DNA of 64,000 bases from an uncultured Arcobacter sp. (lineage in GTDB: Bacteria; Campylobacterota; Campylobacteria; Campylobacterales; Arcobacteraceae), in assembly GCA_965140705.1 (NCBI GenBank), contig OZ223300.1, positions 64,001 to 128,000 on the forward strand, given 5' to 3'. The position numbers were made by a program, and so were the translations under genes. Shown here in pieces: positions 13,241-19,242 of the stretch (positions are counted from its first letter, which is position 1; the number at the start of each line of letters is the position of its first letter). The notes below the pieces were generated by a model. It had not been told where the DNA came from and made no database searches. It was given only the letters and a program-made list of their open reading frames with translations.

Positions 13241-13275
13241 AAAAAAAAGGGGGAAAGTAAACCTTTCCCCCTTTT
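13241..13275 (-). terminator. Intrinsic terminator (probably bidirectional)
   Basis: aaaagggggaaag-taaac-ctttccccctttt, with an A-tract giving a minus-strand U tail. Confidence 0.85.
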
Positions 13276-13372
13276 AACTCAAAAAATTCGTGCTTTAAAA
13301 TTAAATATTAATTATTAAAAATTCTAGCACCTCCTAAAATTTCTTATATTCCATTATATTTCATATCAAATT

Positions 13373-13480
13373 TTACTGAGCAATATATACTATTGTTGAT
13401 AATACTGAGATAATATAAATTCCCAAAGTTATCAAATAATCTTTTTTATTCGTTTTTAATACTGCTATAAATTTGTTCAT
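13373..13480 (-). CDS. Small membrane protein A, 35 aa (not in ORF track): MNKFIAVLKTNKKDYLITLGIYIISVLSTIVYIAQ
   Basis: Translated by hand; starts 8 bp after the hsp20 stop behind a GAGAG purine tract; one hydrophobic segment; paralog at 17160-17255. Confidence 0.7.
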   Translation of the reverse strand: MNKFIAVLKTNKKDYLITLGIYIISVLSTIVYIAQ

Positions 13481-13488
13481 CTTCTCTC

Positions 13489-13902
13489 TTATTTAATCTT
13501 TATTACTTTTTTATGTTTTTCTTCACTTAATTTTGGGATAACTACTTCTAACACTCCATTTTCCCCAGATGCTTCCACATTTTCAATATCTGCATTATCT
13601 GGAAGAGTAAAACTTCTTGAAAACTTACCAAAAGATGTTTCTACTTTATAATAATCTTCTTCTTTAACTTCTTCTTTTGTTTTTCGCTCACCTGAGATTG
13701 TTAATACCCCTTTGTGAATATCAACTTTTATATCATCTTTATTAACACCTGGTAAGTCAACATCAATATGATATGCAAATTCACCCTCTCTTGTGTTAAC
13801 TACTGGTACAAAACCACTAACTCCTTCATTTGAAGGATATTTATAAAAATCCTTTTCTAAATCTCTAAATTGTTTAAAAGGGTCAAATCTAGTTAATAAC
13901 AT
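13489..13902 (-). CDS. Small heat-shock protein Hsp20/alpha-crystallin
   Basis: DLPGV, LTISGER, FGKFSRSFTLP, NGVLEVVIPK, terminal IKI; AAGGAG RBS. Confidence 0.95.
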   Translation of the reverse strand: MLLTRFDPFKQFRDLEKDFYKYPSNEGVSGFVPVVNTREGEFAYHIDVDLPGVNKDDIKVDIHKGVLTISGERKTKEEVKEEDYYKVETSFGKFSRSFTLPDNADIENVEASGENGVLEVVIPKLSEEKHKKVIKIK

Positions 13903-13925
13903 GCTAAACTCCTTAAAAAATATTT

Positions 13926-13946
13926 CTTGATAGCTTTCCTATCAAG
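13926..13946. promoter_or_regulatory. HAIR-like inverted repeat (HspR operator candidate)
   Basis: CTTGATA-N7-TATCAAG versus consensus CTTGAGT-N7-ACTCAAG; upstream of hsp20. Confidence 0.6.
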
Positions 13947-13969
13947 TTAATGAAATAATAACATATTTT

Positions 13970-14028
13970 TTAGCACTTGTCAATATATAGTGCTAATATT
14001 TTTAGCAAATTATTTTATAGAGTGCTAA
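13970..14028. promoter_or_regulatory. Two tandem CIRCE elements (HrcA operators)
   Basis: TTAGCACTT-N9-TAGTGCTAA (13970-13996) and TTAGCAAAT-N9-GAGTGCTAA (14002-14028) versus TTAGCACTC-N9-GAGTGCTAA. Confidence 0.88.
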
Positions 14029-14092
14029 TTAAACTTTTTTATACTTATTTGTTTTTTATGAATATTTAAATAGAAATTTTATGAAATAAACG

Positions 14093-16138
14093 CTAAAGTG
14101 GGATTTTTATAGTAAATGTAGTACCCTTATTCTCTTCACTATGACAATCAATTTTCCCTCCTAAATTAATTGTCACTAGATTATAGACAATATTTAAGCC
14201 TAATCCAATTGAACCATTTTTTCTATTAGTTGTAAAAAAAGGCTCATATATTTTTGATAAATTTTCTTGTAAGATTCCCTTTCCATAATCTTGATATTCA
14301 AAAATAAAATCTTTTCCCTCAATTCTAGCACTTAAAGAAATGACTCCTTTTTCATCATCCTTATATGAATGTTGTAAAGAATTTAAAATCAAATGATGAA
14401 GAATTTGTGCAAAAAATCCTGGAAATGAGTTAATTCCTAAAACACCATCGCACTCTATCTTAAATTCAATATCTCGTTTATTTAATAAGTTATCCATACT
14501 TATTAAAATACCTTTAATATACTCTTTAACATTAAAAACTCTTTTTATTTCACCAGTTTGATCAACAGCAAGTTGTTTGAAGTCTTTTATAATATTTTCT
14601 ATTTTATTCAAATTTGTTACTATAATATTAATCAATTCATTTGAATTTTGCAAAAGGGTTTTCAAATCTTCAGGAGAAATTGAATTACTCTCATATTTTG
14701 AACTTATCTCTTCACAAATATACTCTAAATGTGATGCCCCTGTAACTCCAAGACCAATTGGGCTACTAATTTCATTTGCAACACCTGAAACCAAACTACC
14801 AAGTCCAGCTAGTTTTTCAGACTCTACAAGTTTATTTTGAGTTATTATCAGATTTTCCATAGAAGCTTCAAGTTCATCATTTGATTCTTGCAAATCAAGA
14901 TTTTTATTTTCTAGTTCTATTTCTAACATCTTTTTATCTTGAATATCTCTCCAAAGTCCATGTATTACCACTTCTTCATTTATAACTATCTTTGTTAGTA
15001 CAATTTCACACCAAAACTCTTTCCCTGATCTTTTTTTAAGAAGCCACTCAAATCGTATACTATCTTTTTCTAAACATTTATTAATATACTCTTTTCCTAA
15101 GGTGCTAGAAGATACACCATTTGGTTGAATTTCGGGGGATATCTTATCTGGATCTAAATTTAAAAATTCTTCTTTGTCATTAATTCCAAATAATTTCAAT
15201 AGTGCGGGATTACAATCAATAAATTTCTCATCTTTTAATAAACTTATTCCATCAGAAGAGTCATTAAAAAGTGTTTCAAAAACTTTCTTTTCTTCTTCTA
15301 ACTCTTTTGTTCTAAGTCTCACATCTTCTTGAAGCTTAGAATTAAATGCTTTTATTTTTTCTTCCTGCTCTTTTAACTGCTCAATATCTTCAACAATTTT
15401 ATCTCTCATCTTTTCAAAATTTGTTGATAATATTTTTAATTCTTTTACCCCTGATACATTTATCTCTGCGTTAAAATCTCCGGAGGCAATCTTTTTTGAA
15501 ACATTTGATAACATATCAATAGGTTTTAATACTTTTCCTACAATTACTATAACTATTAATGAAATTGCAAGAATAATTATTAAGGAAATGACTAAAAACA
15601 TATCTCTAAATGTATATAATTCTTGATATTTAATATTTATATCAACTCTATAGCCAATAATCCAATCCCAAGGTTCAAAATGTTTAAAGATAATCCATTT
15701 ACCACCATCTTTTATAACAATTTCAAAATTGCCATTTTTTTCTTTCAATATTCTTTTGTATTCTGCTTTATCTTTATATAAATTTTTATCTTGTTCATTA
15801 TAAATTCTATGCAATAATAAAAATCCCTTTTCATTTATTATAAAAGGAAAAATACCTTTAGTATTTTTATTAAAAACATTTTTTATAATATTTAAAGTTC
15901 CCTTTTTAAATGATTCTTCGTAAGACTTTTCCATTTGTGTTTTTAAAAGTGTTTGGTATTTTTGGTTTATAAGATAGATAATATTGTCAATTTTTTCATT
16001 GTATATTTTCTCTTGTGATATATCTATTTCTTTTTTTAAATAATTATAAGAAAAATAAAAAATAGTACCTATTCCAAGTATTATTACTAAAAGGATTGAA
16101 ATTAGAAGTTCCGTTTTTAAAGAGCTATTTTTTATCAT
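14093..16138 (-). CDS. Cache-HAMP-PAS sensor kinase-like protein with H-box His replaced by Asn
   Basis: 2 TM, HAMP, PAS; EKLAGLGSLVSGVANEISSP; DYGKG, EPFFTT and GLGL ATPase motifs. Confidence 0.85.
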   Translation of the reverse strand: MIKNSSLKTELLISILLVIILGIGTIFYFSYNYLKKEIDISQEKIYNEKIDNIIYLINQKYQTLLKTQMEKSYEESFKKGTLNIIKNVFNKNTKGIFPFIINEKGFLLLHRIYNEQDKNLYKDKAEYKRILKEKNGNFEIVIKDGGKWIIFKHFEPWDWIIGYRVDINIKYQELYTFRDMFLVISLIIILAISLIVIVIVGKVLKPIDMLSNVSKKIASGDFNAEINVSGVKELKILSTNFEKMRDKIVEDIEQLKEQEEKIKAFNSKLQEDVRLRTKELEEEKKVFETLFNDSSDGISLLKDEKFIDCNPALLKLFGINDKEEFLNLDPDKISPEIQPNGVSSSTLGKEYINKCLEKDSIRFEWLLKKRSGKEFWCEIVLTKIVINEEVVIHGLWRDIQDKKMLEIELENKNLDLQESNDELEASMENLIITQNKLVESEKLAGLGSLVSGVANEISSPIGLGVTGASHLEYICEEISSKYESNSISPEDLKTLLQNSNELINIIVTNLNKIENIIKDFKQLAVDQTGEIKRVFNVKEYIKGILISMDNLLNKRDIEFKIECDGVLGINSFPGFFAQILHHLILNSLQHSYKDDEKGVISLSARIEGKDFIFEYQDYGKGILQENLSKIYEPFFTTNRKNGSIGLGLNIVYNLVTINLGGKIDCHSEENKGTTFTIKIPL

Positions 16139-17103
16139 TTTACTAACACCGCATTATCAATTAATTCAAAAGGGAAAACTATATTAAGCTTTTTTGCTAA
16201 AGTTGTATTTATATAAATATTTGCTTTTTTATTTACAACTATTGGTATATTTTTTATGTTTTCACCCTTTAGAACTCTAAGGGCTGTTTTCGCTACCCAC
16301 TTACCTTGCTCTTCAGGCTTATTAGCAAAAATTAACAAAGCAAAATTATTTAGAGTAATATCCCAAGCAGCAGATGGTATTTTAGTCTCTTTTTCGACAA
16401 AATCTTTTAACTGGTCTTTATTCTTATCCCAATTTACTAAAGCCCCACTATTTCCAAGTAATAAAATATCTACATTATTTTGTAAATATATAAAATTCTT
16501 TTTCCATTCTTCTATTGTTGTTGCATACCTTTTAGTAATTTTTTGATTTAACTGTTTTTCAAAAAACTGGTTCTGTATTTTGACACTGAAAGAATCATCA
16601 TCTAAACTACCTATTCTCTTCCCCTTTGCATATTTTTTTAAAGTATCAATTAGTTGGGGGATAAGCTGAACTTCTTCCATTCCAGTTATATTATTAGGTA
16701 GTTGTTCATACTTCTTTATGGTGCCATTTATACCACAAAAAATAATTGGAATAGTTGAGTTTTTAAAATAGGGTAAAATAACATATTTAAAGGCATTATC
16801 ATCAGAAGCAATAATCACATCAGGTTTAAAGTTTTCAATTTGATTTTTGATTTTTTTGGCTATTTTTATTTTGTAAGACTCATCATTATTTATTTTAGAG
16901 TCCATTTCGACTCTTTTAAACTCAATGGGCAGTTTAGAGTTAAAAAGTACTTTTTTTAGGCTTTTCTCAATCCCATCACTCCAATAAAGACCAGAATGAT
17001 AAGAATTGATATAAAAAACTCTTTTTTTGGCAATAAGATTTTCTGCTTTAATAAAGCTAAAGAACAAGACTAATGAAAAGAGAATAGTAAAAATCTTTTT
17101 CAT
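16135..17103 (-). CDS. Periplasmic ABC-substrate-binding-like protein coupled to the kinase
   Basis: Signal peptide; INSYH, PDVIIASDDNA, PIIFCGIN, EQG, INTTLAKKLNI; 4-bp overlap with the kinase gene. Confidence 0.8.
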   Translation of the reverse strand: MKKIFTILFSLVLFFSFIKAENLIAKKRVFYINSYHSGLYWSDGIEKSLKKVLFNSKLPIEFKRVEMDSKINNDESYKIKIAKKIKNQIENFKPDVIIASDDNAFKYVILPYFKNSTIPIIFCGINGTIKKYEQLPNNITGMEEVQLIPQLIDTLKKYAKGKRIGSLDDDSFSVKIQNQFFEKQLNQKITKRYATTIEEWKKNFIYLQNNVDILLLGNSGALVNWDKNKDQLKDFVEKETKIPSAAWDITLNNFALLIFANKPEEQGKWVAKTALRVLKGENIKNIPIVVNKKANIYINTTLAKKLNIVFPFELIDNAVLVK

Positions 17104-17159
17104 AATAAGTACTTTTCATTTATTATAACATAACTTACACATAATTGATATGACATATA

Positions 17160-17255
17160 TTAATTAGTGATTATTGCATAAGTTGTAATAATAGTTATGA
17201 TATATATTCCTATTACAATTAAATAATCATTTATATTAGTATTTATATTATCCAT
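17160..17255 (-). CDS. Small membrane protein B, 31 aa (not in ORF track): MDNINTNINDYLIVIGIYIITIITTYAIITN
   Basis: Translated by hand; AAGGAG 6 nt before ATG; paralog of 13373-13480. Confidence 0.7.
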   Translation of the reverse strand: MDNINTNINDYLIVIGIYIITIITTYAIITN

Positions 17256-17371
17256 TTTTTTCTCCTTTTTATAGGAGAAAAAATTCTCCTATTTATTTTG
17301 TTTTATTAATTATCTTGCGCCTCATATGAAACTTCAAGTTCTTCCTTTTTTTGATTTGCTTTTTTAGACAT

Positions 17372-17404
17372 AAAAAAAGGGAAGAGCTAAAAAGCCCTTC
17401 CCTT
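17372..17404 (-). terminator. Intrinsic terminator of typA
   Basis: aagggaag...cttccctt stem followed by a U tract on the minus strand. Confidence 0.8.
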
Positions 17405-17427
17405 CGTAAAATTTAGTATTCTAAATT

Positions 17428-19242
17428 TTATTCGAATTTTGTCTTTTTAGCTGTTCTTTTTCTAACTGTTGGGTCAAGTTCTCTTTTTCTAACTCTTACT
17501 GACTTAGGAGTAACTTCAACTAATTCATCTTCTTCAATCCACTCTAATGCATTTTCTAAAGACATCACTCTTGGTGGGACTAACTTAATAGCTTCATCAG
17601 CACCTGAAGATCTTACGTTCGATTGTTGTTTCCCTTTTGTAGGATTAACATCTAAATCATTCCCTTTTGCATGCTCACCAATAACCATACCGTTGTAAAC
17701 TTTATCTTGAGGCTTAATAAACATAACCCCTCTATCTTGTAAGTTAAAAATTGAATACCCTAAAGCTTCTCCATTTTCCATAGAAACTAAAGCTCCGTAT
17801 TTTCTTGATTCAACATTTCCTGAATATGCTCTAAACTCTAAGAATGAGTGGTTCATAACACCCTCACCTTTTGTCTCAGTTAAAAACTCTGTTCTAATAC
17901 CAATCAATCCTCTTGCTGGGATTTCAAATTCAAGTCTTGTATAACCAGATCCCATTGGTACCATATTAGTCATATTAGCTTTTCTTTTTCCAAGTTTTTC
18001 AATAATTGCACCACTATATTCATCTGGAGTATCAATAACTAAATGCTCAAATGGCTCCATTTTTATACCATCTTCGATTTTAGTAATAACTTCAGGTCTT
18101 CCAATACAGAACTCAAAACCTTCTCTTCTCATATTTTCTGCTAAGATACAAATTTGAAGTTCACCTCTTCCGTTAACTTTAAATTTACCTTCACCATATT
18201 GCTCATAATTCATAGCAATATTAGTATTCATTTCAGCTCTTAGTCTCTCATCAATTTTATTTGAAGTTACATATTTACCTTCAGTTCCAGCTAATGGAGA
18301 ATCATTAACCGCAAATGTTACAGATAATGTTGGCTCTTCAATATGCATAGGATCAAGAGGCATAGGATCTGTTGGATCACAAAGAGAATCACCTACGTCA
18401 ATTGTTTCAAAACCAGCAACGGCAACAATATCACCAGTACCAGCTGTTTTGATATCGAATCTATCCATACCTTTAAATCCAATAAGTTTAGAAACTCTAC
18501 CTCTAACTTTTTCTCCATCTGCTTTACATAATAAAACTGTCTCACCCATAGAGATTGTTCCATTAAATATTCTTGCAATACCAATTTTTCCAATAAAGTT
18601 ATCATAATCAAGTGTAAATACTTGAAGTTGAAGACCATTTGAATCATCACCAACTGGTTTAGGAACTTCTGTTAAAATTGTTTCAAATAGTGGAGTTAAA
18701 TTTTCATTTGCATCTTCTAAAGCAAGTTTTGCATAACCATCTCTGGCTGCTGCATATACAACTGGAAACTCTAGTTGTGATTCACTTGCACCCATTTGGT
18801 CAAAAAGGTCAAATACTTCATCAACAACTCTATCTGGATCTCCACCTGGTTTATCAATTTTGTTAATAACAACAATTGGTCTATGACCTAAAGAAAGTGC
18901 TTTTTTTACAACAAACTTAGTTTGTGGCATAACACCCTCTTGTGCATCAACAAGTAATAAAACAGAATCAACCATTTTTAAAACCCTCTCAACTTCACCA
19001 CCAAAATCGGCGTGTCCCGGAGTGTCAATAATGTTAATTCTTACATCCTTATAGTCAATAGCCGTATTTTTAGAAAGGATTGTAATACCTCTTTCTTTCT
19101 CAATAGCATTACTATCCATAACTCTTTCATCCACATGCGTATGGGCTGCGAAAGTTCCTGATTGCTTCAACAGCTCATCAACTAATGTTGTTTTACCGTG
19201 GTCAACGTGTGCGATTACGGCAATATTTCTTATGTCTCTCAT
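17428..19242 (-). CDS. typA: Translational GTPase TypA/BipA
   Basis: [44 protein letters not shown]. Confidence 0.98.

Follow-up and report, generated by a model that had tools for sequence, protein, structure and literature searches.

Two very small open reading frames (ORFs) on one Arcobacter contig raise the question of whether they are genes at all and, if they are, what such short peptides might do behind genes of the stress response. The stretch analyzed here, referred to as the window, comprises 64,000 nucleotides (nt) of an uncultured Arcobacter sp. (assembly GCA_965140705.1, contig OZ223300.1, positions 64,001 to 128,000 of the forward strand). Its minus strand carries micro-ORF A (13373-13480; 35 amino acids (aa), MNKFIAVLKTNKKDYLITLGIYIISVLSTIVYIAQ) and micro-ORF B (17160-17255; 31 aa, MDNINTNINDYLIVIGIYIITIITTYAIITN), both present in the ORF listing and both made up of a head, polar in A (MNKFIAVLKTNKKD) and reading MDNINTNIND in B, and one transmembrane (TM) helix. 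In this work, we compared both ORFs and their surroundings with those of related genomes. The comparisons indicate with near certainty that A and B are real, conserved protein-coding genes.

Two related micro-ORFs of a small peptide family

A sequence-only reading of the window had placed the two ORFs on the minus strand as paralogues with half of their aligned residues identical and a common end position, and all of this was borne out. Aligned without gaps and anchored at the C-terminal end, A and B share 13/26 residues, and in both of them 21 residues separate a conserved Asp from the end of the peptide. The six reading frames of the 3.1-Mb genome to which the window belongs contain 38,387 stop-to-stop segments with lengths of 26-60 aa; at least 10 identities were reached among these only by the query peptide itself and its paralogue, and none of 200,000 shuffles attained 13 identities; the likeness is therefore not due to composition in this genome of 28% G+C. 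In a six-frame search of the same genome, A and B were each other's sole significant match (E 1e-3 to 2e-3). The plain pairwise BLASTP comparison was weak (E 0.096), so that the family-wide evidence must carry the case for relatedness.

Two further statements of that reading stood in part. It had given each ORF a purine-rich ribosome-binding site, which holds for B, where a Shine-Dalgarno (SD) sequence, AGGAGA, lies at 17266-17261, 5 bases 5' of the ATG; A starts 8 nt past the hsp20 stop and has merely a purine run, GAGAGAAG, abutting its ATG. It had also described both ORFs as missed by the ORF track, and this holds for A, whose exact sequence occurs in no public protein collection; that of B is already found in NCBI/UniRef. 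In Arcobacter nitrofigilis DSM 7299, an orthologue of A bears the annotation hypothetical protein Arnit_3105.

A genome survey with a profile of 20 members gave matches in 88 of 184 genomes from this bacterial family, spread over 17 of its 22 genera, and none of the approximately 90 matches with E < 1e-3 contained an internal stop. The 232 genomes from the rest of the order gave one weak match only (E 3.7e-4), a look-alike of 37 aa from another family (G200, L082 647-760) that carries the motif NKKDIFIVLSIE. A second outlier, in G019 (L074 5703-5813), is a weaker 36-aa member upstream of a 142-aa ORF that does not match hsp20. When a profile of 39 members was run against 1.84 billion representative proteins, 37 clusters were obtained at E up to 1e-3, all of them of 30-43 aa, and the usable public names of family members read "hypothetical protein". 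Neither A nor B matched any Pfam or NCBIfam family above the curated cut-off; the best Pfam match for A was Hol_Tox (E 0.2; 12 bits vs a cut-off of 23.3), B had none, and the ESM Atlas returned nothing at 0.9 or above, its best score of 0.83 being below a meaningful level. The shortest members of the family, of 24 aa, start with MKDYII.

In the literature searched, as far as its texts were available, no account is given of small membrane proteins encoded downstream of hsp20 or typA in Arcobacter, and neither the peptide family nor the RNA cassette examined below is described in the available portions of that literature, including PMC6429828, PMC6733600, PMC8594479, PMC12648545 and PMC13000454. 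The term "heat shock" is absent from the main text of the 2025 review PMC12648545, and the main text of Stav et al. 2019, in which an Arcobacter genome was analyzed, mentions neither hsp20 nor typA, supplements aside.

Selection on the ORFs was estimated from pooled Nei-Gojobori counts over non-overlapping sequence pairs, namely 11 pairs for B (22 of 25 sequences; G002, G003 and G185 left out) and 7 pairs for A (14 of 16 sequences; G001 and G173 left out). In counts left uncorrected for the A+T bias of a 28% G+C genome, non-synonymous changes made up 108/191 in B, against 79% expected, and 108/174 in A, which corresponds to ratios of non-synonymous to synonymous change (dN/dS) of 0.26 (p 1.4e-12) and 0.30 (p 4e-8), respectively; the values of single pairs are noisy and range from 0.06 to 1.4. 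The third codon position was the most variable one in 22/31 and 22/35 columns. These data indicate that both A and B are under purifying selection, and the conservation at the protein level claimed beforehand is confirmed by the pooled ratios together with the orthologues in relatives.

The anatomy of the peptides was deduced from an alignment of 39 members of 27-39 aa. The Asp (residue 14 of A) is invariant in it, Tyr15, Ile17, Ile21 and Tyr22 are each kept in at least 90% of the members, and Thr or Ser occupies positions 25, 28 and 29 after the conserved Tyr22. The resulting pattern, D-Y..I...I-Y/E..T, has an alpha-helical periodicity of conservation with a peak at 90-100 degrees, which means that one face of a helix is conserved. 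All 39 members contain a 19-residue window with a Kyte-Doolittle mean of at least 1.66, the 19 residues past the Asp are uncharged in 36/39, and only 20-24 residues lie between the Asp and the C-terminus. AlphaFold2, provided with the 39-member alignment, modelled peptide A with helices at 2-10 and 12-34 and a mean predicted local distance difference test (pLDDT) score of 94. With the TM window in every member and the helical model, the peptides have the make-up of small hydrophobic single-TM peptides of less than 60 aa. The head is Lys/Asn-rich, variable and the least conserved part, being merely "MK" in some members.

Tyr22 is replaced by Glu or Gln in 3 of the 39 aligned members and in 8 of the 25 members retrieved by the pattern search described below, so that a polar or ionisable group is kept in the middle of the membrane; such a mid-membrane Glu (IEF, IEL, IEI) or Gln was seen at L115, L125, L128, L134, L146, L150, L151, L069 and L073. 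The head is probably cytoplasmic, and the helix would pass the membrane once and end at its far side; with its conserved helix face placed within the membrane, this is also where the peptide most likely acts. Altogether, the spread of the profile, the selection and the TM anatomy agree with the earlier proposal of an unrecognised, conserved family of single-TM micro-proteins with A and B as paralogues, and they delimit a previously undescribed family of 24-39-aa peptides that, by our genome comparisons, is confined to one bacterial family (Arcobacter-type).

Fixed places behind two stress genes and a shared RNA cassette

Members of the family occupy two positions. A-type members lie 3-45 nt downstream of hsp20 in 17/17 loci; in 26/26 loci, B-type members lie downstream of typA/BipA and on its strand, at a distance of 160-500 nt. 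In the window, these neighbours are hsp20 (13489-13902, minus strand), which encodes an alpha-crystallin small heat-shock protein (Pfam HSP20, E 3.5e-25), and the gene of the typA/BipA GTPase (17428-19242, minus strand; Pfam GTP_EFTU and BipA_C), the constant upstream neighbour of B.

The hsp20 control region (13955-14028, minus strand) is conserved in relatives. It contains a CIRCE-like inverted repeat, TTAGCACT-N11-AGTGCTAA (13970-13996), which is overlapped by a predicted promoter, TTGACA-17-TATTAT (13983-13955), the core TTAGCAC-N13-GTGCTAA coinciding in part with the -35 box, and a second, imperfect copy of the repeat lies at 14002-14028. A relaxed form of the repeat pattern occurs three times in the 3.1-Mb genome, before hsp20, groES (Cpn10) and htpG (HSP90), and the hsp20 promoter thus has its repeat in common with classical chaperone genes. 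We take this repeat to be the CIRCE-type operator of HrcA regulons, and the hsp20-A operon accordingly carries a predicted heat-shock operator of this HrcA type. No terminator was found between hsp20 and A, the terminator of the operon being located at 13245-13275. The placement of copy A directly after hsp20, and with it the tie to stress suggested previously, is hence supported by a transcript in common with a CIRCE-type hsp20 gene.

In front of B, the RNA contains a cassette that consists, in this order, of (i) an SD-like arm, (U)AGGAGA, (ii) a U-rich loop and an anti-SD arm, UCUCCU(A), and (iii) the true SD, AGGAGA, followed by an A-run and the AUG, with a gap of 4-9 nt between the anti-SD arm and the true SD. 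It is present in all 25 B loci folded and, like the uORF described below, had escaped the sequence-only reading. Its three segments can pair in two mutually exclusive ways. In hairpin 1:2 (17271-17292, minus strand; SD-like arm AUAGGAGAA, loop UUUU, anti-SD arm UUCUCCUAU) the SD is free; in the alternative hairpin 2:3 (17256-17283, minus strand) the U-run and the anti-SD arm pair with the true SD and with the A-run up to the start codon. The minimum-energy fold of the window's own B cassette is 2:3 (-12.2 kcal/mol), and this hairpin, with the SD caught by a nearby anti-SD, was predicted for each of the 25 B and 10 A cassettes. As the joint MAFFT alignment of A and B cassettes was out of structural register, base pairs were counted on B only, in 21 of the 25 loci (G002, G003, G109 and G173 left out). 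In the 1:2 helix 95.6% of the cells were paired, with three AU-to-GC double changes and G.U wobbles, and in the 2:3 helix 93.4%, with three double changes; sliding the partner columns as a control gave at most 77%.

Before A, the cassette was found in 10 of the 16 A loci folded, directly past the hsp20 stop, with other arms (GAAGGA/UCCUUC) in the same layout. The stop codon of the upstream frame, which is hsp20 for A and an upstream ORF (uORF) for B, lies at or inside the base of hairpin 1:2. What is retained across the loci is both alternative helices of a bistable SD switch that starts at the upstream stop codon. The cassette would appear to be ancestral in front of each copy and to have been lost in some lineages, that of the window's A included.

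The uORFs of the B loci comprise 9-21 codons, often start with MSD(D) and have an SD of their own. In 22 of the 25 B loci, a script restricted to ATG starts located a uORF whose end lies 2-10 nt short of the GGAG in arm 1, and those of the other three, with TTG starts, were recognised by eye. The uORF of the window, LKFHMRRKIINKTK (17337-17293, minus strand), is one of 14 codons whose TTG start was read by eye; it ends in MRRKIINKTK, and its stop abuts the base of hairpin 1:2. A 21-aa ORF at 17306-17371 (minus strand) was considered as uORF and set aside, its frame being kept within the genus only and missing in other genera, and the frame abutting the hairpin, which alone of the two has counterparts in other genera, was preferred. 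Nor did we rely on a promoter predicted for B at 17337-17309, which overlaps the start and the SD of the conserved uORF; transcripts of B may come from read-through of the typA terminator or from a promoter that makes use of the T-run of this terminator. Directly upstream of the uORF stands the typA terminator (17376-17405, minus strand), with a 13-bp stem and a T-run, kept in 12/12 of the relatives shown.

The effect of a ribosome on the cassette was modelled at 37 °C by masking everything up to and including arm 1, as a terminating ribosome would. For B (n = 25), the modelled accessibility of the SD was 0.41 without and 0.05 with this mask, and for A (n = 10) it was 0.73 and 0.11, respectively; across the B loci, folds 1:2 and 2:3 are nearly isoenergetic. 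The modelling does not support a pure RNA thermometer: in a nearest-neighbour model, which is too coarse for a decision, the mean SD accessibility of B rises from 0.30 at 20 °C to 0.48 at 48 °C, and the crossing temperatures of 9 B loci extend from 35 to 80 °C and do not cluster in the physiological range.

In the genome of the window, a strict pattern of the cassette precedes a small ORF at B alone, and its one further match stands before a frame of 200 aa. Searching one genome per species in 185,579 species yielded 38 matches, 25 of which are followed by a family member; these 25 come from records titled Arcobacter, Halarcobacter, Poseidonibacter, Arcobacteraceae or Campylobacter-ales/-aceae, and the other 13 come from unrelated phyla and have no member. 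Rfam, searched at E up to 1, gave nothing at the cassette and sub-threshold matches at the two terminators only.

Several known RNA devices resemble this one. The RNA thermometers fourU and ROSE mask the SD of small heat-shock genes, and as in these a U-run and pyrimidines pair here with an SD in a heat-shock context; in contrast to them, there is a further hairpin that competes for the anti-SD, modelled switching is scattered or never takes place, and the masked gene is a micro-ORF and not hsp20. In leader-peptide translational attenuation of the ermC type, the position of a ribosome decides the fold. The arrangement of a short upstream ORF beside alternative hairpins, one of which holds the downstream SD, is common to both, whereas the present device has three segments only, a decoy arm that is SD-like and an upstream stop codon within the stem, and it is found after a full-length gene (hsp20) as well as after a uORF.

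What the peptides may do

Our favoured reading, to which we assign a probability of roughly 0.55, is that A and B are stress-related membrane peptides made at low dose, with ribosome traffic upstream acting as the gate of their translation. The peptide genes ride 3' of two stress genes, A behind hsp20 and B behind typA/BipA, and their translation would be set by a three-part RNA switch composed of an SD-like decoy arm at the upstream stop codon, an anti-SD arm and the true SD. With arm 1 paired to arm 2, the SD would be open; a ribosome terminating on hsp20 or on the uORF would cover or melt arm 1, upon which arm 2 would fold onto the SD and close it, and the SD would open again once hairpin 1:2 has re-formed. 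In this manner, only small amounts of a membrane-active peptide would be made from a stress transcript. Its site of action would be the membrane, where the conserved polar face would let it associate with itself or dock onto a membrane protein. The direction of the gating, the induction by heat, the low dosage, the topology and the action in the membrane are what we infer from the sequences and models described above; a search for sequencing runs gave 3 runs of one study, none of them recorded as RNA.

Several findings weigh against this reading. The sign of the coupling, which comes from modelling, is its least secure step, and the predicted default state of B varies by species, 12 loci being always open, 3 always closed and 10 crossing. 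The cassette is absent in front of A in 6 of the 16 loci (the window, G001/G003, G008, G161 and G173), where A starts 3-12 nt past the hsp20 stop; such a start would couple A positively, not negatively, to hsp20. The covariation is thin, with two pairs showing double changes in each helix, and in B it is limited because the cassette is nearly invariant. The dN/dS values, as stated, take no account of the A+T bias. No profile match was obtained in 96 of the 184 genomes of the bacterial family, and in one genus (g11), where hsp20 occurs in 21 of 44 genomes, 10 of the 11 genomes with hsp20 and without the peptide were examined, all ten of which have a terminator or no family ORF after hsp20. The family is thus frequently lost, which marks it as accessory. 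Finally, at the loci compared there is no conserved membrane-protein neighbour that would point to a partner, the constant neighbours being the soluble Hsp20 and TypA.

This last point bears on the likeness to the single-TM peptides of about 30 aa from E. coli and Salmonella, such as MgtS, MgtR and KdpF, which are often stress-induced. Small membrane-protein regulators act by binding larger membrane proteins, as set out in the available part of PMC12648545, and the conserved helix face of A and B is what binding of this type would need. MgtS, MgtR and KdpF are usually encoded or regulated together with their membrane target, whereas the genes around A and B indicate none: the peptides are not encoded beside a membrane-protein target and the downstream genes vary. 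Nor did Pfam, NCBIfam or the ESM Atlas show any sequence similarity to peptides of this type.

The rival that survives best, although we regard it as unlikely, takes A and B for type I toxins, that is, for membrane-depolarising peptides whose messenger RNA is untranslatable by SD sequestration and whose antitoxin is an antisense RNA that has gone unseen. Some type I toxins are induced by stress, as TisB is by the SOS response, and the translation of hok depends on the upstream reading frame mok, in a way that resembles the gating by an upstream frame proposed here. In size and shape, A and B fit the ~30-aa, one-TM peptides of AapA/IsoA of Helicobacter, TisB and Hok, most type I toxins having fewer than 60 aa, one TM helix and short extensions according to the available part of PMC12648545. 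An anti-SD a few nt from the SD, which traps it in a hairpin, is named as a hallmark of type I loci in the accessible portion of PMC6733600, and a similar trap is described in that of PMC12648545; here, a hairpin of this kind is predicted, with the anti-SD 4-9 nt upstream of the SD. At B, such an antisense RNA might begin within the ORF and terminate at the hairpin, with a T-rich tail on the opposite strand, and on the plus strand hairpin 17271-17292 plus tail does score as terminator-like. The presence of one or two copies, the patchy distribution with frequent loss and the faint Pfam echo of Hol_Tox would likewise suit a toxin.

No antisense RNA gene, however, was recognised in the sequence of the B and A loci: a TAnAAT box for an antisense transcript, at a fixed position, is confined to 10-12 of 25 B loci and to no more than 3 of 16 A loci. 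Unlike typical type I loci, which are mobile or multi-copy, these peptide genes keep strict synteny with core stress genes across 17 genera. Those six A copies that follow the hsp20 stop at 3-12 nt, apparently coupled directly to hsp20, have no sequestering hairpin, which is hard to square with a potent toxin. There is no match to a toxin family above threshold and no relation to the Pfam toxin families, and the word "Arcobacter" is absent from the main text of the T1TAdb paper.

The most novel idea is that of an antitoxin-free, translation-sensing membrane effector, in which ribosome traffic on hsp20, or on the uORF behind the gene of the ribosome-stress GTPase TypA, would play the role of the type I antisense RNA by driving the anti-SD onto the SD; we consider it a long shot. 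Were it true, faltering upstream translation would let the decoy hairpin re-form and open the SD, a peptide with a buried Tyr or Glu would be made, and this peptide would lower the energisation of the membrane or retune a membrane complex, a new logic linking proteostasis and ribosome status to the membrane.

Neighbouring genes and wider meaning

The regularity with which A follows hsp20 suggests another, rather improbable role, that of a membrane tether or cofactor of Hsp20 whose cytoplasmic head would hold the chaperone at the membrane in heat stress. A is always the next gene after hsp20 and on one transcript with it (17/17 loci, and all 10 strong peptide matches in genus g11, which lie within ~150 nt of hsp20), and in several lineages it appears to be translationally coupled to hsp20. 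The co-occurrence is not two-way, as the ten g11 genomes with hsp20 and no A illustrate; since A is always found with hsp20, and hsp20 also without A, A needs the hsp20 transcript and Hsp20 does not need A. Besides, no hsp20 stands beside B in 20 of the 26 B loci, and the head, which would have to hold the chaperone, is the part least conserved, the conserved face being located in the membrane.

The genes that follow B argue in a similar manner against a role, for which we see very little room, as a small regulator of the adjacent pair of a binding protein and a His-less kinase, by analogy with small peptides that bind sensor kinases. In the window and in G001-G003, this 3-kb pair forms a lineage-specific insert between B and hsp20 (14093-17103, minus strand; ABC-type binding protein at 16135-17103, sensor kinase at 14093-16138), and it is also found after B in four genomes that belong to a different genus, so that it lies within ~55 nt after B in 8 of the 26 B loci, in two genera; a different binding-protein/kinase pair is convergent to B in three more. 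In the remaining 15 loci no such pair is adjacent, and a kinase neighbour is missing from paralogue A as well. The other genes found after B are unrelated and include those of an Ada-like regulator, a molybdopterin oxidoreductase, an ATP-grasp protein, a GGDEF-EAL protein and hsp20, from which it follows that the kinase pair is not the conserved partner. The special tie between B and this pair hinted at in the sequence-only reading is accordingly not supported, typA being the neighbour that never changes. The least credible alternative, that the ORFs are untranslated by-products of A+T-rich sequence around a conserved RNA or DNA signal, can draw on the abundance of short I/N/K/Y-rich open frames at 28% G+C and on the conservation of the flanking RNA elements themselves, and it founders on the excess of synonymous over non-synonymous change, the variable third codon position, the frame and length kept without a stop in ~90 matches, the alpha-helix-like periodicity of conservation and the strong, properly spaced SD before B in every locus.

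A compact gene order, typA - B - hsp20 - A (G005, G007 and G173) or the same without A (G020, G120 and G175), places the hsp20 control region within ~20 nt of the B stop; in G005 and G007, which lack the insert, that region comes directly after B. The sensor kinase of the insert has an Asn in place of the phospho-accepting His of the H-box (GVANEISSPI vs GVAHEIRNPL of ZraS) and no HisKA match in Pfam. The Asn is kept in 7 of the 8 orthologues beside B, one (G129) having His, and the protein may be a pseudokinase or a kinase that uses another residue.

Two further elements of the hsp20-A operon were noted. Between promoter and SD, the hsp20 leader contains a hairpin, CTTGATAG-GAAAG-CTATCAAG (13926-13946, minus strand), which is kept in relatives with some stems changed and which appears to resemble an HspR-type inverted repeat. 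Downstream of A, a conserved 3' untranslated region (UTR) and the terminator cover 13245-13372 (minus strand; z -3.9). The ~95 nt of the 3' UTR proper (13276-13372) comprise TTTGATA past the stop, a perfect SD-like GGAGGUGC, a GUGC/GCAC hairpin and UUUUUUGAGU, after which the terminator follows. This arrangement is kept in the six compared genomes of the genus and unrecognisable after the A copies of three other genera; it may represent a 3'-UTR-derived small RNA or a stability element. In 5 of the 10 genomes with hsp20 and without the peptide (L105 and L109-L112), the terminator after hsp20 begins with TAAGAG just past the stop, like arm 1 of the cassette, and the cassette hairpin and a terminator may be interconvertible in evolution.

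In kind, A and B would belong with small stress-linked membrane peptides and type I-like toxins; what is new is the family itself, its two "rider" positions and the decoy-SD switch with an embedded stop codon. Small membrane proteins are largely missing from annotation, and few of them have been tied to a defined stress regulon outside the enterobacteria. In the compact, conserved device described here, it is an SD-like/anti-SD hairpin with a stop codon embedded in it that competes with the true SD. This device would serve as a clean natural model of how ribosome traffic on one ORF sets the yield of the next, and the cassette offers a simple sequence signature for finding more hidden micro-ORFs. 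For a whole bacterial family that includes the food- and water-borne Arcobacter, our results point to a conserved peptide in the hsp20 heat-shock operon and to a paralogue of it behind typA/BipA.

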